A stretch of 64,000 nucleotides of DNA from an uncultured virus (IMG/VR IMGVR_UViG_3300035395_000183) (Duplodnaviria; Heunggongvirae; Uroviricota; Caudoviricetes), in IMG/VR virus record IMGVR_UViG_3300035395_000183, one strand, 5' to 3'. Made by a program: the position numbers and the translations under genes. This document shows positions 1,954 to 62,600 of this stretch, piece after piece. Under the pieces are notes generated by a model, which worked only from the letters and a program-made list of their open reading frames with translations, did not search any database and was not told where the DNA came from. The first letter of the stretch is position 1. Every line of letters begins with the position of its first letter.

Positions 1954-2610
1954 ATGAGCTATATCTATTGCGTTACAAATACTGTAAATAATAAGAAATA
2001 TGTAGGAAAATCAGCGTATTCTTTAGAAAAAAGATGAAAAGAACATTGTAATGATTATAATAAGGAAAGATGTGAGAAACGACCATTGTATGATGCAATG
2101 TCTAAATATGGAATAGATAAATTTATACTTGAGTTACTAGAAGAATGTGATGAAATTAATTTATCGTCTGCGGAATCTTATTGAATAGAAACGTTAGAAA
2201 CATTTAAAGATGGATATAATGCAACTTTAGGAGGAGACGGATCTATCTTATTTGATTATCAATTAATTGTTAATACATTTAATACTGGATTAACTGTAAA
2301 AGCAACTGCTGAGAAAATAGGATGCTGTATTGACACTGTTAGAGATGTATTGCGATTATACAAAATTGATTCTTGTAAACATAGAACAATAAATACTTCA
2401 AAATCTATTAATCAACTAGATTTAAATGGAAAATATTTAAAAACTTTTAAATCAACAATGGAAGCAATTCAATGATTGTATGAAAATGGATATACTAAAA
2501 GTCCTAGTACTGGAAATAGTAGTCATTTAGGTCAAGTTGCTAATGGTAAGCAAAATACAGCTTATAAATTTAAATGAGAATGAACAAAAATTGGAGAAGA
2601 CAATCTGTAG
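1954..2610 (+). CDS. free-standing GIY-YIG homing endonuclease with C-terminal NUMOD1-like domain (TGA=Trp)
   Basis: Absent from the ORF track. Reads MSYIYCVTNTVNNKKYVGKS..KR*KEH..ESY*IE..GYNATLGGDG..TAYKFK*E*. In-frame TGA at 2035, 2182, 2473, 2575 and 2581, mostly at positions where this family has Trp; TAG stop at 2608-2610. Confidence 0.85.
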
Positions 2611-3876: not shown

Positions 3877-3961
3877 TGAGGATTATTCCGTAAGTGGTAG
3901 CGGGCTTGACTGTAAATCAAGCGTCATTGTGACTCGGGTGGTTCGACTCCATCATCCTCAA
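3877..3961 (+). tRNA. tRNA-Tyr (anticodon GTA)
   Basis: Acceptor TGAGGAT/ATCCTCA, CTTGA-CTGTAAA-TCAAG, long variable arm, GGTTCGA T-loop. Confidence 0.9.
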
Positions 3962-3981
3962 CAAAACTAAATTAGACAAAT

Positions 3982-4377
3982 ATGTTTGAAAATGCAATAA
4001 ATTGAAAGAAACAAGGAGATATAGGCATGTGTTATGCGATAGCCTATTATTCCAAAATGGGATGAACAATATCCATTCCTATAACAGATTCACAAGATTA
4101 TGATTTAATAGTAGATACAGGTTCTTCATTACTTAAAGTTCAGGTCAAAACAACTAGTCAGATAGCACCAAGTGGTGCTTCAGTAGTTGCTTTAAGAACA
4201 AATGGAGGAAATAAAAGTGGCAGCACTAGTAAAAACTTTGATGAAAATGAAAGTGATTTGTTATTTGTTATGACTAATCAAGCGGAGTTCTTCTCTATTC
4301 CAAGAAAAGAGATTACAGCAGTCAGTTCAATTACTTTAAGCGAAAAATATTTGCCTTATAAAGTTACTTTATTATAA
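3982..4377 (+). CDS. PD-(D/E)XK homing endonuclease, I-Ssp6803I-like (TGA=Trp)
   Basis: Absent from the ORF track. MFENAIN*KKQGDIGMCYAIAYYSKMG*TISIPITDSQDYDLIVD..KVQVKTTS; TGA at 4003 and 4063; YDLIVD/VQVKT motif. Confidence 0.8.
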
Positions 4378-4422
4378 ATCCGTTACATTGAAACACTGTA
4401 GGTTCGAATTCTACCGGCGGTA
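4375..4422 (+). pseudogene. orphan 3' half of a type II tRNA (Leu- or Tyr-like)
   Basis: TAAATCCGT, long variable region, GTAGG-TTCGAAT-TCTAC T-arm, CGGCGGT-A; no matching 5' half found. Confidence 0.7.
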
Positions 4423-4428
4423 CTACAT

Positions 4429-4489
4429 GGAGTCTAACCTTGGGTTATTGGTTCGCGACCAAGAGAGGTTCGAATCCTCTCAGACTCCC
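4429..4489 (+). ncRNA. minimal tRNA-like element
   Basis: Perfect acceptor GGAGTCT/AGACTCC, T-arm GAGAGG-TTCGAAT-CCTCTC, mini D hairpin AACC-TTG-GGTT, arm TTGG-TTCGCGA-CCAA. Confidence 0.6.
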
Positions 4490-4616
4490 TAATTAATTCC
4501 ACTACGATATACGAACAAACATCATTAATCTGGTCGTTGAGGTCAAAATGTCAATTTAATAATTTAACAGCGGGATGATGCCCAAGTTAAAGCGGAATTA
4601 ATTTTTAATAAATGTT

Positions 4617-4898
4617 ATGAAAATCAAATTAAAAAACCTATTCTTAGGATTAAAAGAACAACTACCCTGGCGGAGAGCTTTTAGAAATTTTTTCATTACA
4701 GGCAATGCTTGGGGAATGTTTTATTTAAGTTCTCATCAACGTACCGATATTCAGAAAACAAAAGTAATGTACAACACTAAAGCTTCAGCATTAAAAGCTG
4801 CAGAAGCTATGAAAAAGAAACAAAATACGCATTTTAGTGTATATAAATGTATCTTTTGTGATGGATATCATCTTGGTAGAAACAGAGATAACAAATAA
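4617..4898 (+). CDS. hypothetical protein with C-terminal CxxC..H zinc-binding-like motif
   Basis: VYKCIFCDGYHLG. Confidence 0.6.
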   Translation: MKIKLKNLFLGLKEQLPWRRAFRNFFITGNAWGMFYLSSHQRTDIQKTKVMYNTKASALKAAEAMKKKQNTHFSVYKCIFCDGYHLGRNRDNK

Positions 4899-5377
4899 AG
4901 AAATACTGGCTATAAACATTACTTACTTCTAACTTGTCTGTAACACAAATCTTAGTAGTTTAATTTCCAGTTAACTTTTAAACAAACAATTATGGATTTA
5001 AAAAATCTTATAAAGGCTAATGAAATCCAATGGAATCTAAAAGAAATGTATGTGGATCGTTTATTACGTTGGTATCCCGATTACTTAATATTTAGATCTG
5101 CTCCACACCCTGAATATTTTGTATTTAGGTTAAAATCAGAAGAATGGTCAGAAGATCATTCTAATGATATATATATTCACTACACACAATTGTGTGATAT
5201 AACTATGTAATAAGAAGCTCTTCTAGCCTATAGCGGTGGAAGTAAAACTAAATAGATATCAGTAACGATCGAAACTGTTAATCTGCGGTCATATGTTGGC
5301 TTTGGTAATGTGTTGCACTCACAAGAAATTATCCACGTTTCTATTAATAAGTTAGCATCTATTAAGTAGAAACAATC

Positions 5378-5449
5378 GGTTCCCTAGTTCAGAGGCTAGA
5401 ATACTAGATTTGTAATCTTGAGACTACGGTTCGAGTCCGTGGGGAACCT
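5378..5449 (+). tRNA. tRNA-Thr (anticodon TGT), atypical acceptor
   Basis: Acceptor GGTTCCC/GGGAACC, anticodon loop TTTGTAA, T-arm TACGG-TTCGAGT-CCGTG. Confidence 0.75.
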
Positions 5450-5588
5450 CAAACAAATAAATTAAATAAAATCAAATGGAACTGAAATATGATGAAGCAC
5501 GAGATAAACCAGGATGTAATGTAACGATTTCTCCTGGATGTTTAGTAATTATAACAATAATCCTGTTACTTATAACATTACTTTAATT

Positions 5589-5984
5589 ATGACTTTACAA
5601 GAAAAAATTCAAGCAGACTTAACTGCAATTCCTATTAGAACAGAAAAAGAAACAAGAGAATTATTAAAAACTCTATTAGCTGAAATTAAACTTAAGAAAG
5701 GTAATACTCCATCTGATGATGAAGTGTTAGCTGTTGTTCGTAAGTTTAAAGAAAATGCTATTGAGTGTAATAATTTAACAGAAGTTCCTATTCTTGATGC
5801 ATACTTGCCAAAAATGTTATCAAGTAAAGAAATCTTTGATATTGTCAGTGGTATTATTGTATTAAATAATTTTACTACAACCAAAGATTTAGGGCAGATA
5901 ATGGCAAAACTTAAAGAACGTGCAGACTTTAATCAAATTGATAAGAAGTTTGCAAATACGGTAGCAAAAGATTTATTAACATAA
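5589..5984 (+). CDS. GatB/YqeY domain protein
   Basis: MTLQEKIQADL..LLAEIK..SDDEVLAVVRK..ILDAYLPKMLS..KDLGQIM matches the YqeY pattern. Confidence 0.75.
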   Translation: MTLQEKIQADLTAIPIRTEKETRELLKTLLAEIKLKKGNTPSDDEVLAVVRKFKENAIECNNLTEVPILDAYLPKMLSSKEIFDIVSGIIVLNNFTTTKDLGQIMAKLKERADFNQIDKKFANTVAKDLLT

Positions 5985-5990
5985 TAAGAT

Positions 5991-6017
5991 GCCTGATTGG
6001 TGGAATTGGTAGACACG
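5991..6017 (+). pseudogene. 5' fragment of a disrupted tRNA-Leu
   Basis: GCCTGAT-TG-GTGGAATTGGTAGACACG, a Leu-type D-arm; acceptor strand can pair with ATTGGGT at 6881-6887. Confidence 0.75.
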
Positions 6018-6020
6018 TAT

Positions 6021-6102
6021 GCTCTCGTGGCGTAATTGGTAGCCGTGTTAGTTTTAGGAACTAATGTCGAAAGACGTGCCGGTTCGATTCCGGCCGAGAG
6101 TA
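6021..6102 (+). tRNA. tRNA-Leu (anticodon TAG)
   Basis: GCTCTCG/CGAGAGT-A, TTAGT-TTTAGGA-ACTAA, variable arm GTC-GAAA-GAC. Confidence 0.9.
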
Positions 6103-6113
6103 CAACTTAATTA

Positions 6114-6551
6114 ATGAATATGAGAAATGACATCCTGGAAAGGAAAGAAGAGATTCTCCAATGAATTGCGGAGAATGAAACTAATGCCGAAATGGCAAGA
6201 AGATTGGAATGTAAAGTAGATACTTTAAAAGGATACTACAAAAAATGAGGAATTGAATATGGTGGTAATCAAGGAGCGAAGGGTAAAAAATCCAATCCTA
6301 AACGAAAAACTGCCGAAGAATTATCTCAGAATCCTATAACAAACTCTCATAGATTACGCTTAAGAATTCTTGAGGATGGAGTTAGAGAACACAGATGTGA
6401 ACAATGTGAAAATACTGAATGAATGGGAGAACCTATTCCTTTAGAATTACATCATATAGATGGTAATCATAATAACAATGATTTATCTAATATACAGTTA
6501 TTGTGTCCTAATTGTCATGCTCAAACAGACAATTTTTCAAACAAAAAATAA
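6114..6551 (+). CDS. HNH homing endonuclease (TGA=Trp)
   Basis: Absent from the ORF track. CEQCENTE*MGEPIPLELHHIDGNHNNNDLSNIQLLCPNCHAQT; TGA at 6162, 6246 and 6420, the last at the family's EW.G.PIPLELHH position. Confidence 0.9.
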
Positions 6552-6555
6552 AAAG

Positions 6556-6843
6556 ATGAAAAAACTAATTATAATACTTATGATGTTTTTTGCTTTCACA
6601 ACTTTGAAAGCTCAAAGTACAGTAGACACTGCTCAATGTAAATATGCAGAAATCAATAATTTACAAGGTATGCCTAATGTTGTAATAACATGGGCAGAAG
6701 GAGTTCAAAATACTCTTTTAAAACAAAAAACAATGTTAGATGCCTTGAATTTTATGTCTTTAAAAGGTTGGGAATTTGTATCATCATATGATACTAGATT
6801 TTCACAAGATATATTACATCATTGGATTATCAGACGTAAATAG
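6556..6843 (+). CDS. small secreted protein (signal peptide; DUF4177-like LN...GWEFVS motif)
   Basis: MKKLIIILMMFFAFTTLKAQ signal peptide; its TAG stop coincides with the anticodon of the tRNA remnant. Confidence 0.6.
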   Translation: MKKLIIILMMFFAFTTLKAQSTVDTAQCKYAEINNLQGMPNVVITWAEGVQNTLLKQKTMLDALNFMSLKGWEFVSSYDTRFSQDILHHWIIRRK

Positions 6844-6888
6844 GATCAAGTGCCGAAAGGTGTGTAGGTTCGAGTCCTACATTGGGTA
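6841..6888 (+). pseudogene. 3' fragment of disrupted tRNA-Leu(TAG)
   Basis: TAG-GA-TCAAG, variable arm GCC-GAAA-GGT, GTAGG-TTCGAGT-CCTAC, ATTGGGT-A. Confidence 0.8.
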
Positions 6889-7061
6889 CAAACATTAAAT
6901 AAATAAATTATGTTAAATAGAATAATACAAATACCTCTTTTACTTCTTGCGTTTATAATTCTAATAAGTGTAATAATTCCAATATTTTATTGGTTATTTA
7001 CTGGAGAGGATCCTGCGGATAAGTTTTGTGATGTTGTTGAACAAATCTTAGATATTGAAAT

Positions 7062-7400
7062 ATGGTAGATTTTCAACGATTACAAGCCCATTTAGACAAT
7101 GGCGAAATAGAGTATGTTATGTGCGCTGCTAATTGGATTGATGATGGAAAACATTATACTCATAAACCATTTAATATAAACACAGGAATTGTATTTAGTG
7201 GATGGAGACATGGTAGTATTTTTGAACAATCACAAATTGGATATCCATTTTATATGTATGGTGATAAAACAATACAAGGTTTTTTAACTACAAAGAATCG
7301 CTTTCTTAATAGAGAAGATGCTTTGGAATTAGTGAAAAGAATAGGACAATTAACTAAACCTTTAATTGGAGGAACATTAACAAGCGAGGATTTATGGTAA
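7062..7400 (+). CDS. conserved hypothetical phage protein
   Basis: CAANW..G.RH..QGFLTTKNRFLNREDA..LTSEDLW pattern. Confidence 0.65.
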   Translation: MVDFQRLQAHLDNGEIEYVMCAANWIDDGKHYTHKPFNINTGIVFSGWRHGSIFEQSQIGYPFYMYGDKTIQGFLTTKNRFLNREDALELVKRIGQLTKPLIGGTLTSEDLW

Positions 7401-7536
7401 CATTAATTTTAATCCTTTTTATCATAGTTTTTATTGAACATAGATTCAGTCCAAGATTTGATTACACACTTGAAAATTGGATTATTCTATGGTATGGTCC
7501 ACCTTCAAATAGACAATATATTAAACTAATAAAACT

Positions 7537-7878
7537 ATGAAAACACTTTTATGGCTAGATGATAGTCGAGATCCTTTTACATCTGATTGGTTAATTTTTA
7601 GTCCAATTAAACGACCCTTTCAAACTATATGGGTACAAAATTATGAGGATTTTTGTGATTGGTTAAGAACTAACGGCATTCCAGATGCAGTTTGTTTTGA
7701 TCATGATTTAGGCACAGAAACAACAGGATATGATGCTGCAAAGTTTCTTTGTGCTCAATGTGAGTTGTTAAATGTAGCAGTACCTCTGTATAGTATGCAA
7801 TCAGCAAATACCGTTGGTAGAGATAATATTAGGAGCTATATTGAAAATTTTAAACGATTTTCAGATATAGTTTATTAA
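7537..7878 (+). CDS. cyclic-phosphate-processing receiver-like domain protein
   Basis: LWLDDSRDP..VCFDHDLG..GYD..SAN.VG motif. Confidence 0.7.
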   Translation: MKTLLWLDDSRDPFTSDWLIFSPIKRPFQTIWVQNYEDFCDWLRTNGIPDAVCFDHDLGTETTGYDAAKFLCAQCELLNVAVPLYSMQSANTVGRDNIRSYIENFKRFSDIVY

Positions 7879-7883
7879 AATAA

Positions 7884-7957
7884 GCAGTAGTAGCTCAGTT
7901 GATTAGAGTGCTAGCCTTCCAAGCTGGATGTCGTGGGTTTGAACCCCACCTACTGCT
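7884..7957 (+). tRNA. tRNA-Gly (anticodon TCC)
   Basis: GCAGTAG/CTACTGC-T, CTAGC-CTTCCAA-GCTGG. Confidence 0.9.
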
Positions 7958-7959
7958 CT

Positions 7960-8033
7960 GTGTATGATCCCGAACTGGTCAAGGGGTTGGTTTGTGGTGC
8001 CAATATTAGAGGGTTCGAGTCCCTTCATACACC
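7960..8033 (+). tRNA. tRNA-His (anticodon GTG)
   Basis: GTGTATG/CATACAC-C73, TTGGT-TTGTGGT-GCCAA. Confidence 0.85.
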
Positions 8034-8082
8034 CAATTATTAAATAGTCGATATTATGAATGTATAAATTCATAGATAAAAA

Positions 8083-8169
8083 GGGTGGGTTGCTTTAGAG
8101 GCCGAAAAGTCCAGACTGTTAATCTGGTGAGTGAAAGCTCCATCGTAGGTTCGAATCCTACCCTGCCCT
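8083..8169 (+). tRNA. tRNA-Asn (anticodon GTT) with long variable arm
   Basis: GGGTGGG/CCTGCCC, CCAGA-CTGTTAA-TCTGG, variable arm GAG-TGAAAG-CTC. Confidence 0.8.
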
Positions 8170-8268
8170 CAAACATTAGTTTCCGTCAGTCCTTGGAATT
8201 TCAGTGCATAACTAAACGGAGTTAAATAAGAAGAATTAGGGCACATTACTTCTAACTAATGTTTAAAT

Positions 8269-8343
8269 TGCCCAGTGGTGTAATTGGTTAACACGTCTGG
8301 TTTTGAGCCAGAAGATGTCTAGGTTCGAGTCCTAGTTGGGCGA
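8269..8343 (+). tRNA. tRNA-Gln (anticodon TTG)
   Basis: TGCCCAG/TTGGGCG, TCTGG-TTTTGAG-CCAGA. Confidence 0.9.
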
Positions 8344-8346
8344 CAT

Positions 8347-8431
8347 GCTTGGGTGGCGGAATTGGTAGACGCGACGGACTTAAAATCCGTTTCTCATTGT
8401 GAGAGTGTGGGTTCGACTCCCATCCCGAGTA
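8347..8431 (+). tRNA. tRNA-Leu (anticodon TAA)
   Basis: GCTTGGG/CCCGAGT-A, ACGGA-CTTAAAA-TCCGT, long variable arm. Confidence 0.9.
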
Positions 8432-8439
8432 CAAGCAAT

Positions 8440-20603: not shown

Positions 20604-20635
20604 ACATTTATGCAATTTTATTCAAATATTATTTG

Positions 20636-20643
20636 TATCTTTG
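20636..20643 (+). promoter_or_regulatory. Bacteroidota-type -7 promoter element
   Basis: TATCTTTG matches TAnnTTTG, in the intergenic space upstream of the helicase. Confidence 0.6.
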
Positions 20644-20692
20644 TAATCCTTTCTCTTATAAATATAACAACTAACAATTATGATGTACAACA

Positions 20693-21994
20693 ATGACACG
20701 TGACGAAAGACAACAATTAGGAATTAAAAAATGAATACAAAATGGATGTAGAGGTACTTTACAATGGTGTACAGGGACAGGTAAAACTAGAGCTGCAATT
20801 ATTGGTATTAAAGCATTCCTAACAAAGAATCAAGGTAAAAAAATTGTAGTAATTGTTCCAACTGAATATTTAAAAATTCAATGGTATCAAGAACTTAGTA
20901 AATTTGGAATATTTGATTATGTACAAGTTGAAATTATTAATTCTGCAATTAAATCTTCAGAACGTATAGATTTCATCATTTTAGATGAAGTTCACAGAAT
21001 GGCTGCAGATACTTTTTATCAGATATTTGTACAGCGAAGACCTAAAGTTGTTCTTGGATTGTCTGCGACATTTAGTCGTTTAGATGGTAGACATGAATTA
21101 TTAAAGTCTTACTGTCCGGTAATTGATGTATTAAGTGTTAAAGAAGCCATTGAAAACAAATGGTTAGCTCCTTATAAAGAATATAAAGTATTAATTATGC
21201 CTGATGATATTGAAGTTTATAGGCAAGCTAATGCAGATTTTTTAAATGCTTTTGCTTATTTTGAAAATGATTTTAATCTTGCAATGAATTGTGTAGGCGG
21301 AATCAAAAAAAATAACAAAATAATAAAACCTTCACATTTTGTAAGGTATGAATATGCCCAACAACTTTGTACATTACCTTTATATCATCCACGATATAAA
21401 GATACTGTAAAAGGATTGCTTGCAGAAATCACTGCAATGGCATTTACTTGGAGTAGAGCATTACAAGTACGTAAAGGTTATGTAATGAACCATCCAAAAA
21501 AAGTTGAACTTGCACAACAGATTTTAAAAGCAAGACCAAATAAAAAAGCCATCACATTTTCAGCTACTATTAAACAAGCCGAAAAGATTGGTAATGGTTT
21601 AATAATTCATTCAGGTAAAACTAAGAAGAAAAATAGAATTACAATGGAAGAATTTGCTCCTATGAAAACAGGAGTGATTCATACTGCGAAAAGTCTTGAC
21701 GAAGGTGCTGATGTACCTGGTTTAAGTTTAGCAGTTATTCTATGTAATACTTCTTCTCAAACTCAAAAGACACAGCGATTAGGCCGTGTAATTAGGTATG
21801 AAGAAGGAAAGGAAGCTGAAGTATTTACTTTAGTAATTAAAGGAACCATGGAAGAAAGTTGGTTTAACACATCAATGGCTGGTAAAAATTATATTGAGAT
21901 TTCGGAAGAAGAATTGATTGATATTTTAGCAGGCGGAACTTCGGACAATCTTGTTAGAGAAGGAAAAGAAGTAGATGAATTATTTCGATTTTAA
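20693..21994 (+). CDS. superfamily 2 DNA helicase (one in-frame TGA at codon 14)
   Basis: MTRDERQQLGIKK*IQNGCRGTLQWCTGTGKT..DEVH..GLSAT..DEGADVP..QRLGRVIR. The track ORF starting at 20999 lacks Walker A and B, which lie in frame upstream. Confidence 0.9.
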
Positions 21995-22830: not shown

Positions 22831-23445
22831 ATGCAGCATTTTGAATTATCTTTGAAAGAAGAAATTAACATCTATATTAATAGTAGTCTAACACCAACTG
22901 AATTATTCATATTACGGTTATTATTTCTAGCAATCGACGGAGAACAAAAACATTTAATAAATTATCTAACTAACATATCAAACGGAAAACAATTACTAAG
23001 AAGCGTATTATTATCACTGTTAGAAAAAAAAGTAATAAATTCCACATTTAAAATACCGCAAGAAGGCGAGTCCTTAAACTATAAGAATATACCATTTAAT
23101 AAGAATTTCTTAAAAATGTATATTCGCGAGTCTAACGAAATAGGTAAAGAATTTTTTGATGCATATCCACCATTTATTAGTATTGGTGGAAAATTATGTA
23201 GCATTAAAAACTTTACTAAAGCAGGATTATTCTCTTTTGATGAATTTTGTATTTTTTATGCGAAACAATTGAAAAATGCAACAGCAACTCATGAACGAGT
23301 TATGGATGCCTTATTGTTTGCTAAAGAACAGAATTTAATCAATTATACTATCATTGAATTTATAGCTTCCAAAAAATGGGAAGAAATAGAATATATTCGT
23401 GGTAGTGGTAATGTAAATGGGTACAATAATAGCGAGTTATTGTAA
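22831..23445 (+). CDS. putative replication protein (initiator/helicase loader-like)
   Basis: Coupled to the DnaB-like gene; EFFDAYP motif; function inferred from position. Confidence 0.4.
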   Translation: MQHFELSLKEEINIYINSSLTPTELFILRLLFLAIDGEQKHLINYLTNISNGKQLLRSVLLSLLEKKVINSTFKIPQEGESLNYKNIPFNKNFLKMYIRESNEIGKEFFDAYPPFISIGGKLCSIKNFTKAGLFSFDEFCIFYAKQLKNATATHERVMDALLFAKEQNLINYTIIEFIASKKWEEIEYIRGSGNVNGYNNSELL

Positions 23446-28325: not shown

Positions 28326-29342
28326 ATGTATAATTTAGAAGTACCTATAAGGATAACAAAAGAACTTTTACTTTCTAAATCATGGACTCAAGAAACTTAT
28401 TTTGAGCATTATTTAGGAATACCAGTAAAAAAAGGATTGTTTTGCAGTCCTGCTATCATACGTAAAGATAATAAGCCGACCTGTTCTTTCTATAAGGGAA
28501 AAAATGGTCTTTTAAAATATAAAGATTTTGCTGGACCTACATTTGATTTTGTTGGTGCAGTAATGCACATTTTTGATTGTACTTATTATAATGCACTTCA
28601 AATTATTGCGCATGACTTTGGTTTTAAATCTATAAAGGATAGACCAATTAATCCTCCAAAAATGGAGTACTCGGGATACGAATTACAGGAAACCGAGAAA
28701 GCTAAAATTCAAGTGGAAATTCAAGAATTTACACAAAAAGAATTGGATTGGTGGTTAGCGTTTAGCATATCTTTGAAAACTTTAAATAAGTTTAAAGTCT
28801 TTTCAATTAAATCAGTATTTTTAAATGGTAATTACTTTACAAGTTCCTCCGCCTCTTCCCCAATTTATGGGTATTATGGCGGAGAAACTAGTGATGGTGA
28901 TGAGTTATGGAGGCTCTATATGCCTACGAAACTTAAATATAGGTTTCTTAGTAATTGGAATGCCACCATGATTCAAGGGGCAAAACAATTACCAAAAAGT
29001 GGAGAGTTTATTGTTATTACTAAATCTTTAAAAGATGTAATGGCATTATATGAATTTGGAATTATAGCTATAGCTCCTAATTCAGAGAATCTATTTGTAA
29101 CAGATGCCCAATACGCAAAATTAAAGCAAAAATTTAAAGATATTTATCTATTGTATGATAGAGATTTACCCGGTGTTAAATCTGCAAATAAAATTAGAAA
29201 GCAATTCAAAGACTTAAAAGTTTTATTGATGCCAAAGGTAAAAGATTTTACAGATTATGTAAAAAAATATGGAACATTAAAAACATTTAAATTAATTGAC
29301 GAATGGCTGGAAAAAAGACAGACGCAGCAGCAACATGAGTAG
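28326..29342 (+). CDS. DNA primase (crAss-type DnaG/TOPRIM)
   Basis: SP..RKDNKPTCSFY, ITKSLKDVM, APNSE, YDRDLPG and KDFTD motifs. Confidence 0.85.
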   Translation: MYNLEVPIRITKELLLSKSWTQETYFEHYLGIPVKKGLFCSPAIIRKDNKPTCSFYKGKNGLLKYKDFAGPTFDFVGAVMHIFDCTYYNALQIIAHDFGFKSIKDRPINPPKMEYSGYELQETEKAKIQVEIQEFTQKELDWWLAFSISLKTLNKFKVFSIKSVFLNGNYFTSSSASSPIYGYYGGETSDGDELWRLYMPTKLKYRFLSNWNATMIQGAKQLPKSGEFIVITKSLKDVMALYEFGIIAIAPNSENLFVTDAQYAKLKQKFKDIYLLYDRDLPGVKSANKIRKQFKDLKVLLMPKVKDFTDYVKKYGTLKTFKLIDEWLEKRQTQQQHE

Positions 29343-29752
29343 ACGAAACTCAAGAAGTTGAAGTAAAACCAAAAAAGAAACGCTCAGGATCCTATTCTAA
29401 AACAAAAGGATCTACTTATGAACGACAAATAGTTAATGAATTAAAAGAATTAACAGGTAATGAAAATATATGTACCGCAAGAAGTGAATCTAAGAAATTA
29501 GATGATATGAAAATAGATATTTCAGATCCTGATAAAGTTTTACCTTGTTATTTTCAAACTAAGAAAACTCAAACAACTCCGAGTGTTAAAAAGATTAACG
29601 CCGAGGTTGGATTAACGGATAGGCCGTTATGTATTCTTTGGAATATACAAGTTAAAAAAGAAGGAAATGTAAATATTACTTCGGAAGGTGAATATGCAAT
29701 TATTCCAAAACAATTTTTTTATGAATTACTAGAACACCTTATTAACGCATAG
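29303..29752 (+). CDS. Holliday-junction resolvase-like PD-(D/E)XK nuclease (one in-frame TGA at codon 12)
   Basis: MAGKKTDAAAT*VDETQ..SKTKGSTYERQIVNEL..SKKLDDMKIDI..FQTKK. The track ORF starting at 29507 lacks the KG..YER motif. Confidence 0.75.
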
Positions 29753-33153: not shown

Positions 33154-33220
33154 TGGAACAAATCAGATGAAATATACGCATAGATGAGAAATATTAAAAT
33201 TTTTAAATGAAGAATGCATT

Positions 33221-45914: not shown

Positions 45915-46221
45915 ACAAGAATATTTACTATTTCTTAAATTATGTCAATTATTAGAAATCGAAGAATATAAAAAATTATGGACATGCCTTATTTAAGTTT
46001 AGTGACTTTTCAATTTTCTCAGGAAGGTAATACTGATGGTTCTACAGGTCTTCCTGAAACGGATGGTTGTGAAGAACTCATTGTAGAAATGCAAAGTGCT
46101 CCAGGTTCACTAATGGATTCTCCTGGTTATTTAGTTTTGCGAACTAGAACTGGATGGAGTATCAATGAACCCGAAGATTTAACATCGGTACTAAAATATG
46201 TAACAAATCTTTTTAAACAAA

Positions 46222-50800: not shown

Positions 50801-51511
50801 ATGGAAAATACATTCGCATCATTTAAACCTATAACATTAAATCCTAATCCTTCTAAAGAAGAAATTCAGCAAGAATACTTTAATAGTAATAATGATTACT
50901 TAGATAAAGATATTAGCAGTATATTAGGAATAAGTTTATCTCCTGCAACTTCTGCAACTCCTGCTCCTCAAGAAATTAAATCTGAAAAGAAATATAATAT
51001 TAGGGAGTTATTAGATGAAAATCCTCCGGAAACATTAACTGCTTCTGTTAAGTCTAAAAATACTTCTATAAAGCCTAAAAATAAAAAAGAATTTCTTCAA
51101 ATATATTCTCCAATGGCAGAAGAAGCATCTAAAAAACTAAATATTCCTAAAGACTATTTATTAGCTCAAATTGCTTTAGAAACCGGATGAGGTGAACATA
51201 CTCCTGGTAATAATGTTGGAGGTATAAAAGCATTTGCTTCCTGAAAAGGACCTAAACAAATCCTTAAAACTAAAGAGAAAGGAAAAAATGGTTTAGAAGA
51301 TAGAATGGAACCATTTAGAATGTATAATTCAATAGAAGAAGGTTTTGCAGATTATGTTAATTTATTATCAACTAGTAATAAATTTAAAAGTATCGTGGGA
51401 ATTTCAGATCCATATCAAGCTGCTCAAATTATTGGAAAAAGTGGATATGCCACTGGAGATAACTATGGTACAATAATACAAAATCTAATAAAAGAAGTTC
51501 AACAAATCTAA
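50801..51511 (+). CDS. GH73 (FlgJ-like) peptidoglycan hydrolase (TGA=Trp)
   Basis: Two track ORFs join: LAQIALETG*GE..NNVGGIKAFAS*KG..FRMYNSIEEGFADY..GYATGDNY; TGA at 51188 and 51242 fall at conserved Trp positions. Confidence 0.9.
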
Positions 51512-51573: not shown

Positions 51574-54500
51574 TTACTTCTTAAACACTTCAGCAGCACC
51601 AATATTTCTTGTCATAACATCCATAATTTCTCTATCTCCAGAGATAGAATCTCATATATCTGTTGACATTTTTTTACTTCAAGATAAGAAGACAGGTTCT
51701 GTATTAACAGCTCCTAACGTACTTTGTCATACATTATATTCATTTAAAACTTTATTATTAACTCTTCCTGTTAAATTTAATAATGAACCTGATAAACCGT
51801 CAGTACCTTTTTCTGCAATTAATTGATCTATTATAGCTTTCATAATACCAAGCATTATAAAAATTAATCCAGCATCAGCTAAAGCAAATAAAGCACGTCT
51901 ATTTCTTTCTTCACTATTTTTAATATGAGTAAAATCCAATTTTACAACATCACGTAATGTTCCTACTACAGAATACCAAAGTCCTTCATATGGAGAACCT
52001 TCTCATTTCATTACTGGATCTCCTGTATCTTGATCAGTAGTTTCAGTTGTAATTGTTCCATCATCATGTTCAACTGTTTTAAAGTATTGTAATACTTTTT
52101 TACCATCAACAATTAAATAGTCTTGTACAACTTTACCCATAGGACTTTCATCTCTATGTTGTTCATCAATAGGTTTAGCAAATCACATTTTCATTTTTCC
52201 AGGCCAAAATTGCATAAATTGTAATCAGGTCATTCCTCATCACGTATTATTAGCTTGAGATTGAGCATCTTTATCATAATAACCATATGCCATATCAGTA
52301 AAGGATTTCATACTTGTTCTCTCCGTTTCTGAATATGCTTTATTAATTATATCTTTTTCTGAAAAAGTATCTTTACCATATTCTTTATTTAGCATATTTT
52401 GTAATAACAAATATCTTTGACGTTGTTGATTATATTTAACATCATTAGTTGATGCGATAAATTCATTTCCTTTTTGATATTTGTCTCGATTTTTAAAATA
52501 ATATTCAAAACGTTTATCTTTTGTTGGATCATAAGTAAATACTCCATCAACTAATGAATGAGCTTCATAACTTCCATCATGAATCATTTTAGCAAGAAAA
52601 ATCGATAATCTATTATAATAATCAGGAATTGTATTACACATATATAAATATCGACCTGTTCCTCTAAGCATACCTCGTCTATCAGATTGAGATTTTTTTG
52701 CAATAGTATTAACGTCCATATTGGCAAATCTATAATATCTATTTAAATCATCAATTAAATTAAATTCAGATGAAAACTTATTATCAATAGTCATTAACTT
52801 GTGATAAGCTTTAGTTAAATCGCCAATTGTAAATTGATCTTTTCCATAAATTTGAGTAGCAGCTAAAGATATTCCTTTAAATACTCCAATAGTCATTTCT
52901 TTTACTAAAGATGTTATTTTGAAACCTAACATAGCAGGAGTTGAAATTGCTTTAACTAAACCGGCTACTTTAGCAAAATCTTTAAACTCTTCATCAATAA
53001 CTGGTTCATCAAAAATAGATAATTTCATTTGATTAGTAATATACTCTAATTGATTGGAGATATCTTCATTATTTTTACCGGCTGATAATTTCATCCATCA
53101 TATAAAAGAATTAATGATTGGAAGTTTTTTATCATATTCATTTTTTCTAATTTTACTAAAAGCAATTCGATGTGCAATAGTATCTAAATTTCATTCAAAA
53201 TAATTTATTGAATGTTTTTCAATACCTTTAGCTACATACTCAGGAGTTTGTCTAGCATATACATCATACATTTCATAAAATCCTAAATTTTGAGCCTCCA
53301 AAGCTGCCAAATCATCTTTAGTTAATTCACGATTATCAATATAATCATTAAATTCATGAAAATATGATGATAATTTTTCTTTTCAAAGTTTTCCTGGAGT
53401 AGTAAAGATATCACCAAATCTAGTAACTTCTTCTCTTCTAATTAATGGCATTCTAAAATATTCTTCACTTTCTAAAGCATCTTTTATTTTATTATTAGTC
53501 ATTAATGATTTTATATTTTTACTATCTAACTTTGCAATTTCTGAATCTGGAATTTGTAATTTATGTGCATTTATAATTAACAATAAATTTTGTAGGTATT
53601 CTCGCTCATGATCCTCTAATGCATTAAGATTATCTAACACATAAGGATTTTTAGTTCTAAATTCTTTAGATACTTTTTGATTTATATCATGTAATCATAA
53701 ATTTTCATGCTTTGTTTGAGTTTCACCAATAATATTACGAGAAAATCCACTGAAATTAATTTCTTTATAGAATTTTTTAGTATTTCAAGCAATTTGTTCT
53801 GATGCCTTCAACATTTTTTCTCCAATATGTTGATTTGTCATAGCCATAATTTTATTAATACTATGTAAATCTTTTGATGCTACTCAATCTGGAGTAGTTC
53901 ATAACAATCCCTGAGTAATTCCTTGAATACGTTGACGTTCTTTATTATATTTTTCCTGATGATCACTAAATAATACGGCAATTAAACTTTTGAAATCAGA
54001 AAAACCTAAACTATATTTAGACATTCGTTGATAATCATCAGCAAATTCCATTTGACCTTTTGAAGCAATAACTACTTGTAAAAGTGCAATTAGTACTTCT
54101 TTTGGATCATTGAAATCAACTACTCCTTTCATTGTTTTATCTCGATATCCAACAAATCCAGGGGAATTAAACAACTCTCTTTGAACTTCAATTAAAGCTT
54201 CTACATCTAATAAATCTAAATTTGTATCACTAATATTTTTAAAAACTCTTTCAACATCTTCTTTATTTGTTCCATTAAAATTTCTTAAATTAGTAGTTAA
54301 GTTATATAAAGCAATATCCTCAATTGAAGCTACATTTTTTTCACTTAATTTTAATTCTTTTCTTAATGATTCTTTTAAAGACATTTGTTCTTTAAATTCA
54401 ACAAACTTACTAAAACAATTTTTAGGATAAGTTTGCATATTTAATGGATTATAAATTATAATTTGTGCTATTTTATCATTTTTAACAGAAACATCTGATG

Positions 54501-56238
54501 TAGGAATTAATATATCTTTAAATTCATTTAAAAATAAAAAAGTTTTTAAAAATTCTAAATCTCCATATGTTTTTCCATCAATATGACTTGATGCATCAAA
54601 TTGATTTATAGATAAACTAATAACATTAATGTTTCCATTTAATTTATTTTTTAAAACAACTAAACCAAAAGCAATTGCTTCAGGAATTTCAGTTACTACA
54701 TCTCAATCATCATTTAAATATTCGGTTAATAAATGATTGATAGTTAAATCCTTTTGTAAATCATATGAATTTGTTTTAACTGGAATTTTACTTTTAATAG
54801 CTGATATAATAGCATCCTTTAAAATAGAGACATTTCGATTAGTTTGAGTTTTTACATGGTCAACATATAATTTAATTTTTTTTCTAAACTCTTCTTCTGT
54901 ATCCGATTCAATATAACCTTTTTTTAATCCTGAAATTCCCTCAAAGTTATTTCATTTAATCCATTTCTTGTCTTTTTCATAACGTTTTCTTGCATTTTCT
55001 ACAATTTTTTCTACATCAAAATCTTCAAGTCCTGTTTCTATTTTATATTGATTTCCAAGTAAATCAGATAATTGCCCTTTTAATTTATATTCTCTATCTG
55101 GATTATAATCTGCAATTACTTTTCTAGGAATGAGTTTATTTGCTTTTTGAGTTATTGCTCCAGTTGAATTTAAACCACTATTATTTTCAGTTCCTCTATC
55201 TACAATCTTTTCAACACTTATACTACCTGGATTTCCAAGAGTTTCTAAATGTATAGGAATTACATATAATCGAGTTTGATCTATATTAATATGTAATCCT
55301 AATAATTGTCTATATAAAGCTAATTGTCAATCTAAAGTTAACTTTTTAGCTGTATCTCATTTCTGATATTTAGTTTTAGAAATTTTAATTTCAAATATAT
55401 GTGCATTTCCTGATGTATCAACAGCTACTAAGTCAAGTTTTCCTTTTAATCCTCTTTTTCCACTTGAAATCTTTGAATCCTCACCTCAAATATCAATTGG
55501 TGTTTTAAATTTATCTCCATCAGTCATTATCATAATTTCACTAATAAGATACCCTTGTCCTTGAACCTGAGAAATAACATTTGTTACTATTTCATTAATC
55601 TTTTTAGTTCAATCATTTGTAGAATAGTTACCAAGTAATTCTGAGTTTGCTGGATCAGATAAAAATCGATCAATAAGTTTACTATATTCTTTATCTTGTA
55701 TTTTTAAAGAAATAATATTATGTAAAAATGTACCAAAATCCTTTGTCTTTTCTTCGATTTCTCGAATATTATAATATTCATTTAAAAGAGTTATTAATCT
55801 ACTTAAAGGAATATTTTTTAATTCATCAAAAGTTGAAATGTATTCTAGTAATTTTTCATCATATTTTAATCCGGATATGTTTTCTGTTGGAGAAATATTT
55901 TGAACTCGGTCTAAGTTTTCTTTTATAAAATAGTAAACTCTATTTTTTTCAATAATTTCTGGAGCTAAAATTCCTTTTTCTTTTGTTTCAATTCCTAAAG
56001 AATTATATAAACCTGGATGTGGAGTTGTAATAAACTCTGTTACGATTTCATTGTCAGAGGCAGTATAATCTGAAACTTTAACTACATTTAAAATCTTATT
56101 AATTGTACTTTTTTGAATCTCTTCTTTACTATAAATTTTATCATTTTTTAATTGATAGTTGGCTTCAAAAAATTTAGTAATTAAAGTTTGTATGTCGTTT
56201 ATCTTTTCTCCATCTTTGTAATAATAGCAATTTGTCAT
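51574..56238 (-). CDS. giant virion cargo/RNAP-associated protein with RecB-type PD-(D/E)XK domain, 1554 aa (TGA=Trp)
   Basis: Track fragments ending at 55609, 53899, 53383, 52240 and 51727 share one frame and all stop at TGA; motifs FGTFLH..GKLDLVAVD..IFEIK..*QLALY; TAA stop at 51574-51576. Confidence 0.85.
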
Positions 56239-56239
56239 T

Positions 56240-59200
56240 TTATGAACAATTTAAAGTTATGTTATTTTCATTTAATCAAGTTCTCATAGCTGGTTCTGTT
56301 ACAATTAGACTCAAGTTATATAAAGCATGACTAGAATCTCCTTTTGGTATATCAAATAAATCCATTAAAGGAGTATTTAATAATTCTACTGGATTTTCAG
56401 TATTATCTATTTCATATAATGGATTTACATCAGTTATAATACTTTTTAATCCATTTACAAAAGTTTGAAGATTCTCAAAGTTTTTAATAAAATCTTCTTT
56501 ATTAGCAATTTTTGCAGATACAAATTTAACAAATATTTCTTCAGCTTCAGTAACATTGATACTATCTATATCAGTAAGATTTAGTGTTGAATCTTGTAAA
56601 ACTGATTTAATAAAATCATTATAAATTTCAGGATGTTTATAGCGTAATGGGATTAAAAATACATGTAAAAACTCATGAATTACATCTTCCGTTGTTCCAA
56701 TTTTATCACTAATTAAAATTGATAAATTTTGTTCTCCATTTTCATCTATGGACGAAATAGCAGCATGTTGACCTTCCGTAAATATAGATGAATGCGAAAT
56801 TAATTTAATTGGAATGTTTAAGTCTTTAGTATATTGCTTAAATGAATCAATTAATAAATTAATAGCTTTATTTGTTTTAGTTCGATTTTCTACTTTATTT
56901 TCAACTAATTTATTGGCTTCTTTAAAAGCTGGTTTTATTTTTGTATTACCTACTTGTAAATATAATTTTGCTATTCTTTCTTTCAATAATTCCTCTGCGG
57001 ATAACGTTATTTCATGTGTAATTATTTTACCTTCAGGCGAGAATTTATTAAGATGTGCTTTAACAATATCTCCATCTACACTTATAATTCGATAAATGTT
57101 TCTATCAATTCAATCTTTATTAGTTTTATGTTGTAGTGCAAAATAAGTTCCAGGTTGAATAATATTTAAATCTGATTTTGTTTGAAAATCTAATTTAGCA
57201 AATCCAGGAATTACTACTAAAGATGTTAAATTACGTTCATATAAATTAGATTCTTGACCTTGTAAAGCTTCTCTTCTAACAAAGATCTTTGAATTAGATT
57301 TTTGATTTAAAACTTTTAATAATTCTTTTGTAAAATCTAAATCATCACTATTTATATGATTAATATCTTTATATTGTCCAATATTTAGATAATTTCCTGG
57401 TAATATAGAAGCTGAAGCTCTAGCTTCTTCTGATAAAGTCTTTGGAATAACATAACGTACTTCTACTTCTCATTTAGAATCTTCAATGGCTTCTTTAAAT
57501 TCTACTTTTCAACTATTAGCTCTTGTTGTAAATAAAGTATAGTTTGAAGTAATATTTCGATTTGTAAAGAATTGTAAATCTGATTTATTTTCTTTAATAT
57601 AATCCATTGATTTAATAACTCTATCACTTAGATTTTCATCATATGTTAGAATTTTTTTATCGGATAAAACTTCACCAAATCGTTTCTTTCCATTATCTGT
57701 AAATGTAAAAAAGTCTCCTTCTTGTGCTAATGTTGAATCTTGAAATGATGACATTGTTGCAGCAGAACGTCCTAAATTTTCTGATTCTTTTTTTATTTGT
57801 CTAATATCAGTATCTGTTAAATGTCGAATACTATTTCTAATACCTTGTAAGCCTTCTTTTGGAAAAGCTTTAATTATATAATGATTTTTTTTGACATCTT
57901 CTACATAAGAATATACATTATTTGCATCAACAAATAAAATACTTTTATAGAATTTATGTGTTTTTCCTTGATATAAAAATAAATCTCCAGCAGTTAAATC
58001 ATTACTATTATTAACTTCAGCAAAAGATTTATAATTATCAGTTTTTGATCTTTCTTCGGCTTTAATTAATTCAAGTAATTTATATGATGTGAATGATCTT
58101 ATTTTAGAATAATATATATGTTCAGATTTTGTTACTTTTCCAGATGTTTTTTCCACGGTTAATTGACCAGGATAAATACCTAAAAGTAAATCATTTCCAA
58201 CAGTATCACCTTTACTTAAAAAAGGTTTTATAATTTTATGACTTAAAGGAGTATCTAATTTAATATGAGCTCCTTCTAATTTTAAAACTGATTGTCCTGA
58301 TTCTCCTATTCTATATTCTGCAATTGGCTCTTCTCTCTTACGAAAAGTAAGTTCCCCAGCTTTAAATGTGTTGTTAACATATTTAATTTCTCCAAATGAA
58401 TTTTTAATAACTCCATAAATTGCAACTTGATTATTGGGACGTTTATATATACCTGTAACTAAACCATATGTTCCTTCTGAACCTTCCGGAAATTTTACAA
58501 TATCTTTATTTACAATAATATTTTCAAGAGCATTTTCATATAAATTATCGAAAATTGTTTCAGATGGAGCAAAATACATATTTTTATTAGTAGTTTCTAA
58601 TTCAAAGAAAGAAAGTTGTCTTTCCTTAAATTCTTTTTCTACTTGTAATTCATTTTCTACAAACTGAATATCTTGTAATTGTTTAAATAAATTATCTTTT
58701 CCATATGAATTAGGATGTAGTTGTCAAAATAATGATTTTATAGCCTTAATAAGTCCTACTGTATCTGGATTAATTGTTTTAGCTACTAATGTTAAAATCT
58801 GATTAATTTGAGATACAGTTTTTGCATCTGTAGCTTTAGTCAACATTTTTTCAAACGTAGATGGAATAATTTTATTTTCTACAATTGTGCCACGAAAAAA
58901 AGTTTGAATATCAAATGTATTTATATCAAAAGTCTTATCTTCTTTTAAAATACTTACTAAACTTTCAATATTTACTTTAGTAGCTTCTCTTTTAAATAAT
59001 CCTAAAAATAAAGATAAATCATCATCTGTTTCATAAATAACAACATCATCAGTACTTCAAGCTTTTCCTATAAATGAATCATTTACTGAATATAATAAAT
59101 GCGAATCATTATTTTTAAAATGTTTTACATTTAACGTAGATAATAATAATTGAAGATTTTCTGTAATTTCTGTATTAAAATAATTTTGTAAATTTTCTAA

Positions 59201-59692
59201 ATTTTTAGATTTAATTCTATCTTTTTCTTCTTTTAATGTTGTTGTTCCTAAAACTCCGACAACACCTAAGCCTTTAAAATAATTTAAATCTCTTTTCTTT
59301 AATAACTTTGCTTTTAAACTTTTAACCTTCTCATTTACTTCGCCTTTCTTTGTTCCCTCTCAAATATAATTTTTAATAGCTTGTTCAATATTTGCATACG
59401 TGCCCGATTCTATTATTAATTTATTAACAGTTTGATATAGATTATCAATTTCAGAACTTTTTTTAATTATATTTTTAAGAACTGTTTGATGTATTTTAAA
59501 AGAGGTTTCTTCAGTAATTAAATCTGCCAATTTGGCTAATATTTTATCTTTTTTCTCAACGTTTTCTTCTGCATTATAGCTATTGAAAAGCTCATCTATT
59601 TTTGGATTTTGTCCATCAAGATTATTAAAACTAGTGGAGAGTTCTATGACATCTCCACTAGGTAATTTTAACAAATATTTACATTTTGCCAT
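56240..59692 (-). CDS. giant virion cargo protein with C-terminal zincin-like HExxH motif, 1150 aa (TGA=Trp)
   Basis: Fragments ending at 59360, 57509 and 56276 share one frame and stop at TGA; VIHEFLH motif; TAA stop at 56240-56242. Confidence 0.85.
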
Positions 59693-59695
59693 AAT

Positions 59696-62600
59696 TTAAC
59701 ATTCAAATTTAATTATAAATCCTTTACTTTTAATCAATTGAATTACTTCATGTAATTCTGCTCATCCTTTTTTAACTTCCGGGGTTTCTGTCATAGAGGT
59801 AACAATTACGAAATCTCCATTACTAGAATTTAACTCACTTCCTAAACCTTTGATTGCTAAGGAACCTTGTTTATGTAAAGAATAAAAAAGTAAATCATTT
59901 TCTAATTCTGTTTTTATTTTTTTTCTAAGTTCTAATATTTTTAATTTATCTTCATTTCGTTGAGCAAGTAAGTACTCTGGATCGCGAGATAATTCTTTTT
60001 CCAAATCATATAAATTTAATTCTCCACTATCAATTTTAGAAGAAAACATTACATAATCATAACCTAAAGAATCTTCTTCTTTAATATAATCCTCAAATAA
60101 TGGAGTTAAACGTAATGCACCATAACGCTCATTATTTAATGTTAGATTATAGATATAAAATAAATCTCTTCATTTTACTAAATTATTTTGTGTATTTTTT
60201 ACTAATGTATTTGTATCATGAGAAATATCTAATTCATTAAAAGCTTTTATTAATTTCTGTGCTTTGTCTTTAGTTACAGCATTATTAATAGCACTTAAAG
60301 GAAATGTTGATGTAATACCTTGAGTTTTAATTCCTAAAATATTTCTAATATTAGTTTGAACTTTTAACGAATCTAATAATATATTAGATTTAGTTTGTAA
60401 CATTGGAAGTAAAATACTTTCCATTAATCGCTTAAAGTTTGCAATTCCAAAATTAGTATCTAATGTAATAATAGTATTTTCTGTATCAGTTTCATTAACT
60501 AATATTGAATTATCATTTATATACTTGGCATTTCGAGCGTTATCAGATGTATATACTCTAAAATTATTTATTTTAGTTAACCCAGCATCAAAGTTCATAC
60601 TATTTACTTTTCGTAATAATTCAGTAACATTAAATGAATACTTTTTCAGTTCATCAGTTTTTAATCATTCACTAATTAATCTAATATCAATTCCTGCTAA
60701 TCCTTTTGAAATAATATTATCAGTAATTTTTGGATAAAATGATGGATTGCCAAATTGATTTACAATATTTGAAGAATTAGATACTATTCGATGAGAATTT
60801 TCACGAATTGTAGTTTTAATTAACGAAAACGCTGTATTATATTTAACAGATGATTTTAATAAAATCTCATGTGTTAATGCTAATCCATTAATCATTTCTC
60901 TAAAATGAGGCAAATCATCTATTACATCAAATATATTAAAAGTACTTTTTATTAAATTATAATACTCTTTAGTAGCTTCTCTATACAGAACATTTTCAGG
61001 TTTAAAATAGATTTGAAAATCAAAATTTCCTCCAATAATATTTAACTGGCCTGCTTTTAATAAAGTCTTTTTTACATAAGCTACATCAAGACTTGCATCT
61101 AAAGAAGTATTATATTTAAAAATTAATCCAATTAATTTATCTAATTTAGTATTAGCTTCTGCTACTTTAACTAAATCTTTTGAATCCTTATTATTCATTC
61201 AAAAATTTAAATCAGCAACGTTATTTGAAAATACATGATTTTCTCTTGCATAAACCGCTGTTTCAAAGTTAGATAAATATTTGTTAATTTCTTGAATATT
61301 TGCTGATGTTTTTTGGTTAACAGATAAAAATTTAGCTAATACTTTAACTTCTTGTGCCCCTTGAAAAATTTCTTTTAATGTTTTAGCATTTTGGACCTTT
61401 TCAGGATTTTCATCACCGTATTCTTTAATCAATTTAGTAAAAATAGTAGCTACTACTGGTTTTTTAGGATTAAAAAAAGCATTTACTTCCAATGCATCAA
61501 TAACATCTTCCATAACATCATTAGTCATAATATTTGCAACTTGTGTAGGAGTAAATCCAAGAATCATCAAATAAATATGCATAGATGCTAATTCAACATT
61601 TGCATTAATTTTAGCCATAAGTAACTCTTTTGCATTATCGGTAGCAGCACTAGTAAAACCAGATAAAGCTAAGGCAGCATTAGTTCTTCTTAATTCAAAA
61701 TCTCCAATAGATTTTTGTAAAGATGTAATTTGTTTTTGTTGAATATTCACATCCGCAATCATTCCAAGTTTATAAGGTGTTACTACACCGTTATTAATAA
61801 AATTGAATTGTTTTGAAAATGTTTTATTACTCTGTCGTAAAGCATCAGCTTTATTTTCAAAGAAGTTATTAAAATAACTATTATAATATGTACTTAATGC
61901 AAAAAATGCTTTTAATCCATTTGCTGCAATACCTACATCATCTTTACCAACTGCAGCATCTCGTTGTTGTTTATACATACTAAACATATCATACATAGAT
62001 AAAATCGTTGGAGGTTTAGTCTTTTTACTTAAAGCTTCTTTAGCAGCTTGGTGCCAATCATCAATATTAATTGGTGTATTTGCTAATAAATAATTACTTG
62101 GTGATGAAATAACTTGTTTAATTGTGGACGCTGTAAGATTTTTTAATGATTCATTATTATATAAATGTTTTTTATTTTTATTAAAATTGTTTAATATAAC
62201 AACAAATCCTTTTAATAACTCTTCATTGCCATTAATTGAAATTCCTGTAGTAATAGGAGGATGATTTTTTTCTGATAATTGTTTAACATTTACATTATTA
62301 ATTTTTCGCAAAATTGTATTCAAAACTTTTAATTGTTCTGCTGAAAATTCATTAAATGCTAATGAAGGATTAGCATAAAATTTAATAAAATCCTCTGTTA
62401 AATCTAGCCCTCCTTCAACTAATTCTACAATTGTAGCATTTGGTAAAGGTAGTTTTTCTAACTCATGTAATTGTTCAATAGATGAATAATTATCAATAGA
62501 TCCTCAGGTATTAAATTGTCCATTACCTGAGAAACTACTTCCTAAAATATATGCTTTATCAATATCAAAGTCAGAACCTTGTAATCAAATTTGTCAGATA

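Follow-up and report, generated by a model that had tools for sequence, protein, structure and literature searches.

Phages that read TGA as tryptophan have been described by Borges et al. (10.1101/2021.08.26.457843) and Yutin et al. (2021, PMC7886860) and, as far as the accessible portions of these papers go, their genomes follow a two-block pattern matching the one we report here for a 64,000-nucleotide stretch of DNA from an uncultured virus of the Caudoviricetes (IMG/VR record IMGVR_UViG_3300035395_000183; hereafter the window, meaning this stretch at its full length). The published phages and this one combine a standard-code replication block with a TGA-rich structural block, possess an opal suppressor transfer RNA (tRNA; here in complete relatives of the window) and use TGA in the genes of a lysis enzyme and of homing endonucleases. 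A further point in common is the proposal that an early-region gene with a recoded stop in its frame yields its product only once the code has switched; Borges et al. argue for it, in the available text, in the case of an intron homing endonuclease located within an early gene in the TGA-recoded Agate phages. Our subject is a superfamily 2 (SF2) helicase gene of the window that carries a single in-frame TGA at codon 14. Unlike the published cases, so far as those texts reach, this gene belongs to the replication module, its gate would consist of one codon before the Walker A motif, and the remainder of its tryptophan codons stay TGG under selection. The accessible portions of both papers report variable recoding of replication genes and describe no single 5′-proximal gate codon, and a literature search of partly accessible texts returned no paper in which one recoded stop close to the 5′ end is described as gating a replication gene. 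The proposed helicase gate is a further instance of the published idea, found in one branch of a phage family; this phage comes from microbial-mat metagenomes, whereas the published recoded phages come from the gut.

The helicase locus comprises the following features.

20693..21994, plus strand: XPB/Rad25-like SF2 helicase gene, 433 amino acids with TGA read as tryptophan, from the ATG at 20693 to a TAA ending at 21994
20732..20734, plus strand: in-frame opal codon, codon 14, at an invariant tryptophan (sequence and family alignment)
20771..20788, plus strand: Walker A (TGTGKT, residues 27-32), 3′ of the TGA (translation and XPB alignment)
20999..21001, plus strand: first in-frame ATG, GTG or TTG 3′ of the TGA (open reading frame (ORF) listing, translation table 11)

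A preceding reading of this DNA from its letters alone (the sequence-only reading) had noted that the ATG at 20693 is the only one upstream of Walker A, that one in-frame TGA follows it and that the other tryptophan codons are TGG. The frame and the codon listing bear this out, with TGG at codons 25, 64, 157, 253 and 390. Synthesis of the full-length helicase from an alternative start downstream of the TGA had been considered as well. Under table 11, no ATG, GTG or TTG lies in frame between the TGA and Walker A, and the ATG at 20999 opens a 331-residue frame (20999..21994) that begins far downstream of Walker A, so the helicase has no ordinary alternative start and the product predicted from this ATG lacks Walker A. 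The residues encoded 5′ of the TGA form an R..RQ..G..KW stretch that is conserved across the family and aligns to XPB, so the N-terminus is coding. The Pfam ResIII match covers residues 6-129 and includes codon 14 within the domain. Tryptophan 14 is invariant across seven aligned helicase family members and pairs with a tryptophan of Archaeoglobus XPB (2fwr), answering the earlier question of whether the residue is conserved among orthologs. Selenocysteine at codon 14 is ruled out because the column is tryptophan in all relatives. The neighbouring DNA polymerase (18621-20603), DnaB-like helicase (23445-24521) and primase (28326-29342) genes have zero in-frame TGA, as had been stated for the surrounding replication genes.

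The codon usage of the window (29.5% GC) splits by strand. From position 1 to about 51.5 kb the plus strand encodes an A-family DNA polymerase, the helicase, a DnaB-like helicase, a primase and a Sak4-like gene, along with ribonucleotide reductase, dUTPase, DNA and RNA ligases, thymidylate synthase and polynucleotide kinase. Its 73 ORFs contain 205 TGG codons and no internal TGA, and ten of them end in TGA. Three minus-strand ORFs hold 37 TGA and 6 TGG codons (86% TGA), and all end in TAA.

51574..64000, minus strand: TGA-recoded block of three giant ORFs (1554, 1150 and >1434 amino acids), open only with TGA as sense

Since an in-frame TGA falls at a conserved tryptophan and long ORFs are open only with TGA as sense, we conclude from the sequence that the phage is TGA-to-Trp recoded. 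TGA is shut out of the early ORFs, yet serves as their stop, which hints indirectly at a standard-code host. The sequence-only reading had placed the helicase in a standard-code middle region. This description fits the 73 plus-strand ORFs and is incomplete for the strand as a whole, where four genes besides the helicase carry an in-frame TGA, counting those where relatives, or a family match that spans the TGA, support it.

1954..2610, plus strand: GIY-YIG homing endonuclease with five TGA and no TGG (PHROG 7168, 1.8e-27)
6114..6551, plus strand: HNH homing endonuclease with three TGA and no TGG (PHROG 10822, 7.2e-28)
29303..29752, plus strand: small conserved gene, 149 amino acids, weakly nuclease-like, with TGA at codon 12 (29336-29338; PHROG 244, RusA-like, 2.4e-6)
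50801..51511, plus strand: glucosaminidase (endolysin-like), last gene of the plus block, with two TGA and no TGG (PHROG 3513, 4e-37, spanning both TGAs; Pfam Glucosaminidase, 1.4e-24)

Apparent N-terminal TGAs in the plus-strand ORFs at 33167, 42107 and 49691 were rejected as mis-called upstream starts, either because homology to the complete relative G004 starts after the TGA, because there is no homolog or because a downstream ATG fits.

Tryptophan 14, the lack of another start and the split code usage together make it well supported, as had been proposed, that a full-length helicase possessing the N-terminal motif and Walker A would require the TGA to be read as tryptophan, and hence the code switch. 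We put at roughly 60% the probability that the opal codon delays or reduces the helicase until that switch, as one instance of a family habit. While TGA is a stop in the infected cell, ribosomes would release a 13-residue peptide and no helicase; once an opal suppressor tRNA(UCA) is active, the same messenger RNA would yield the 433-residue XPB-like protein. Its output would then be delayed, reduced or both relative to the TGA-free polymerase, DnaB-like helicase and primase. The change from TGG to TGA would have taken place in an ancestor shared by the window lineage and that of the related contig L002, whose helicase is identical to the window's at 334 of 433 residues (77%). At a 5′ position, early termination would be cheap and truncated helicase fragments would be avoided. 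The family habit would be to place a lone opal codon near the start of the coding sequence in selected genes for DNA processing within the otherwise standard-code block, the gene at 29303 being its conserved example. Here we infer a suppressor in the window lineage, the timing of the helicase and a selective benefit of the TGA.

The ATG of gene 29303 falls within the 3′-terminal part of the primase gene, and no ATG, GTG or TTG lies between its TGA and its conserved core. We compared the window with 39 related loci, of which L104 (core uncovered), L105 (interrupted) and L110 and L111 (29-39% identity) were dropped; 36 sequences were evaluable at an identity of at least 55% and they represent 24 distinct N-terminal leaders. 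One TGA occurs 9-17 codons after the ATG in 15 of the 24 leaders (26 of the 36 sequences), with one leader ambiguous and eight having none. TGA-bearing leaders begin with a conserved M-A-[RKG]-K-K and the residues next to the TGA are variable. Apart from the TGA itself no tryptophan codon, TGG included, stands at the site in any leader; in three lineages leucine (L075-L077) or serine (L098) takes its place, and in 10 of the 15 TGA-bearing leaders no ATG, GTG or TTG separates the TGA from the core. Seven distinct leaders have the primase stop 4 nt after the TGA and seven others have it 8-48 nt before the TGA, so overlap with the primase does not explain why the TGA is conserved. A frameshift from primase into the 29303 frame was considered and rejected, the slippery A-run being in the wrong frame and the primase stop preceding the TGA in seven lineages. 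Most lineages write the one conserved internal tryptophan of the gene as TGG; five write it as TGA, and three of these lack the N-terminal TGA. What is conserved in 29303-type genes is the codon and not the amino acid, as a gate predicts, and these genes lend the gate idea indirect support.

The product of gene 29303 is weakly indicated to be a nuclease by its profile matches. Beside the RusA-like match, Pfam PDDEXK_15 scores 2.2e-4 and 21.6 bits against a cut-off of 27. The AF2 model has a pLDDT of 62 and a disordered leader (residues 1-36). Foldseek against pdb gave no match at E <= 0.001, a PDB profile search gave nothing relevant, and the wide VIA search gave no clear match (best Z 3.3; PvuII Z 3.1). 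In L105, the 29303-type gene is interrupted just before the conserved YER motif at a junction that resembles the insertions in relatives' helicase genes described below.

Several observations, in this and the next two paragraphs, weigh against a helicase gate. The first concern the suppressor.

3877..8432, plus strand: eight tRNA genes, none with anticodon TCA (tRNA search)

No tRNA(tca) was found in the window or in the 83-kb relative G001 (rated 48% complete), for which we used the Rfam tRNA model (17 hits), ARAGORN at default settings, a lower threshold over the first 6 kb and a search of the whole record with introns. The time at which the suppressor is expressed is deduced from gene order in two relatives only. 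That these two each encode an opal suppressor at a corresponding place speaks for the gate. G004 (213,486 bp, rated 100% complete), whose helicase is 62% identical to the window's, is recoded, its cover by long ORFs rising from 58% to 75% with TGA as sense. Its one tRNA(tca) gene (30014-30087, minus strand) is found about 4.5 kb into the head of that strand's structural block; the 24 other tRNAs are encoded separately, on the plus strand. G008 (172,188 bp, rated 100% complete) has the same layout, with tRNA(tca) at 60008-60081 on the minus strand; in both genomes the gene lies on the strand opposite to the helicase. By analogy, the window lineage presumably has a tRNA(UCA) beyond the available sequence, and its expression would accompany that of the minus-strand block. 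Two further tRNA observations were made. At 5040-5124 of G001, about 2.8 kb upstream of the window start, lies a tRNA-like gene whose variable arm is long and whose anticodon is TGG (Rfam model match of 43 bits, missed by default ARAGORN), and ARAGORN calls a tRNA with anticodon TTA, of the ochre-reading type, at 651-734 of L148 (record G010).

The rival that survives best is tolerated drift, in which TGG changed to TGA and was fixed by chance under strong AT pressure with no role in timing, the suppressor being already active enough when the helicase is translated or little helicase being needed. We hold it to be unlikely, though by no means far-fetched, and the codon-14 distribution among relatives speaks for it. 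The comparison set consists of 33 other contigs of at least 49% amino acid identity that cover codon 14; contigs of the two collections may overlap, so that 33 contigs do not equal 33 independent lineages. TGA is found in four contigs of one clade (G001, L001, L057 and L002). The other 29 have TGG, and they include the recoded G004 and the tRNA(tca)-bearing G008. TGG in recoded relatives is an outcome that the sequence-only reading had itself named as refuting its proposal, and a site-specific gate common to recoded relatives is not supported. With TGG in 29 of 33 contigs, the helicase needs no gate in this phage family, and the TGA at codon 14 could be a tolerated accident. Five contigs have TGA in their 29303-type gene, yet a helicase with TGG only. 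A point in favour of the gate is that the lineage of L014 and G003 has its single helicase TGA at another tryptophan before Walker A (position 23); against it, the N-terminal bias of TGA in the helicase amounts to two events among about six tryptophan positions, a chance of about 1 in 9. A more distant clade (about 40% identity) uses TGA many times in its helicase and across the entire replication module; its phages seem to be recoded throughout, so a TGA in this helicase is not special in itself. In the accessible text, Borges et al. likewise report that replication genes vary in their use of the alternative code. In every relative with an identity of 52% or more, the aligned regions of the polymerase, the 22831-type gene and the DnaB-like gene are free of TGA. 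By a rough count across lineages, the enrichment of TGA in the helicase (about 2 of about 65 tryptophan codons, against 0 of about 75 in the neighbours) is not significant.

The helicase genes of the window and L002 share 75.5% DNA identity and agree at 59 of 116 four-fold sites (Jukes–Cantor distance 0.80). Third bases at 66 lysine, glutamate and glutamine sites pair (window/L002) as A/A 45, A/G 12, G/A 7 and G/G 2. A-ending codons therefore dominate and persist neutrally, and retention of an A-ending codon at codon 14 matches the neutral expectation (45 of 66), so persistence alone is no proof of selection for TGA. The same comparison counts against drift in another respect, because all five TGG codons were kept while G-ending synonymous codons decayed (2 of 66 kept as G), which indicates selection against TGA in the helicase body and its tolerance at codon 14, where the TGA was kept too. 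Drift is also opposed by the 205 TGG codons against zero TGA in the 73 neighbouring ORFs, a sign of strong selection against TGA, and by the 29303-type gene, which keeps TGA and never TGG over 15 distinct leaders. The statement that one codon makes the helicase behave as a late gene was too strong, since its five other tryptophan codons stay TGG against 86% TGA in the late genes. The gene looks intermediate rather than late, and its codon usage fits a delay or a dimmer, with translation under incomplete suppression.

Such incomplete suppression would also suit a second rival, leaky expression, in which enough early helicase is made through reading of UGA by the near-cognate host tRNA-Trp or from a non-canonical start, so that the codon dims and does not gate. 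Low-level UGA read-through by tRNA-Trp is established in bacteria, the five retained TGG codons suggest translation under partial suppression, and an ATA follows the TGA in both the window and L002. Yet the conserved R..RQ..G..KW stretch aligned to XPB would be missing from a product begun after codon 14, none of ATG, GTG and TTG is on offer, and efficient read-through would not leave TGA excluded from 73 other ORFs. We consider this explanation improbable.

A sequencing or assembly error, or a helicase pseudogene, could be suspected because a single stop in frame close to a start codon commonly reflects a mis-called start or an error, and Borges et al. rated such integrase cases as artefacts in the accessible text, but the TGA recurs in four other contigs and in those of four public runs from at least two studies, and the ORF is otherwise intact in L002 with all motifs present, which leaves an artefact hardly credible. 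The four contigs are G001 (83,099 bp, 99.945% identical to the window), L001 (99% amino acid identity), L057 (100%, a 141.7-kb metagenome contig) and L002. The runs (X1, X3, X4 and X5) are microbial-mat metagenomes, X3-X5 stemming from another study than the probable source, and their contigs have no differing letter at 20732-20734, even though one run represents a variant strain with other single-nucleotide polymorphisms nearby. Confirmation of the base, which had been proposed from mapped reads, comes here from assembled contigs.

Beyond a delayed or reduced helicase, single opal codons within the first ~25 codons may form a selected codon-level timer, defining a class of genes between 'middle' and 'late'; we advance this only tentatively, as a possible but rather doubtful extension. 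Such a timer would serve enzymes acting on branched or replicating DNA (the XPB-like helicase here, the 29303-type gene family-wide). The codon would be kept as TGA and not as tryptophan, at a 5′ site where it costs only a short peptide, and TGG would persist in the gene body because synthesis of the protein takes place as suppression builds up. If the codon acts as the gate proposed above, the helicase and gene 29303 are natural one-codon reporters of the time of the code switch, the published and so far untested model of code-switch timing becomes directly measurable, and phages can retime one gene of an operon without touching transcription.

Upstream of the gene we noted one candidate element.

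20632..20646, plus strand: motif about 45 nt upstream of the helicase ATG, common to the window, L002 and L006 and similar in L012

It resembles the TAnnTTTG promoter element of Bacteroidota. Matches to it in the window are not above chance (17 against 13.35 expected), and a promoter and terminator scan around the helicase gave 38 promoter-like sites against 36.1 expected and nothing usable.

The helicase translation carries GTGKT, DEVH, SAT and QRLGRVIR motifs in two RecA-like domains. It matches Pfam ResIII (4.6e-19), Helicase_C (6.9e-12) and ERCC3_RAD25_C (5.2e-7), and the PHROG 16 DNA helicase family (6.7e-42). A PDB profile search identified archaeal XPB/Rad25 proteins as its best relatives (2fwr and 6p66, E 2.8e-27), followed by XPBII (4e-26). 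With the family profile, both helicase domains align to archaeal XPB/Rad25 (2fwr, 6p66, 6p4f and 5tnu; E 2.8e-27), and Walker A, DExH, SAT, QRxGR and the tryptophan at codon 14 are common to the two. Unlike XPB, the phage protein lacks the N-terminal damage-recognition domain, its residue 6 pairing with XPB residue 96-97, and it reads R-L-D at the position of the 'RED' motif of XPB.

By sequence, the helicase classifies as XPB/Rad25-like and probably not UvsW-like. The sequence-only reading had drawn an analogy with T4 UvsW, an SF2 helicase of a large virulent phage like the protein studied here. UvsW is expressed late under the control of a late promoter and not of a codon. The analogy finds no sequence support, as the closest solved structures are archaeal XPB/Rad25 and the 19-20 PDB sequences that the protein and family-profile queries match at E <= 0.001 do not include UvsW; the analogy is functional speculation only. 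A late role on branched DNA, such as that of UvsW, would nonetheless fit a code-gated helicase and nuclease.

Membership of the window lineage in the Crassvirales, which the sequence-only reading had assumed, is loosely indicated. The best named matches of the G004 large terminase subunit (TerL), the only protein compared for this purpose, are crAss-like TerL proteins at 28-30% identity with E down to 1e-51, and at 27-30% it matches phages that infect Bacteroidota, which is, like the TGA stops of the early ORFs, an indirect hint of a standard-code host. With genomes of 141 to 213 kb, introns and TGA recoding, these phages are reminiscent of the Zeta group that Yutin et al. present in the available text.

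The helicase gene is uninterrupted in the window and interrupted in many relatives by insertions of about 0.4-1.4 kb, lengths that were taken from the coordinates of the matched pieces. Two sites recur, one inside the Walker A GKT after codon 30 (L009, L010, L020, L125, L128, L130 and L133) and one after codon 363 (L134-L138). The insertions are probably introns. In G002, of the L002 lineage, the DNA polymerase (5545-7517) matches in two parts that lie in different reading frames and join at residues 126-129, pointing to a frameshift, a sequencing error or a small insertion.

For annotation, no single table describes this genome correctly. Table 11 yields a 331-residue helicase fragment without Walker A, and table 4 reads 10 of the 73 early genes past their true TGA stops. 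In these ten ORFs (for example 98-346, 9339-9680, 16684-17538 and 45978-46241) a TAA or TAG lies 2-45 codons further on, and as early or middle genes they would gain short C-terminal extensions after the code switch.

Two minor features complete the description of the window. The 1554-residue giant ORF (51574-56238, minus strand) has a PD-(D/E)XK domain near its N-terminus (Pfam PDDEXK_1, 2.9e-7), and no family was matched by the other two giant minus-strand ORFs. The gene of the Sak4-like annealing protein is divided into an N-terminal part (24524-24820) and a C-terminal part (26655-27005), corresponding to PHROG 2872 positions 1-88 and 106-212, and between the halves lie a GIY-YIG ORF (24792-25304), a group I intron (RF00028, 25379-25620, 110 bits) and an HNH ORF (25994-26575).

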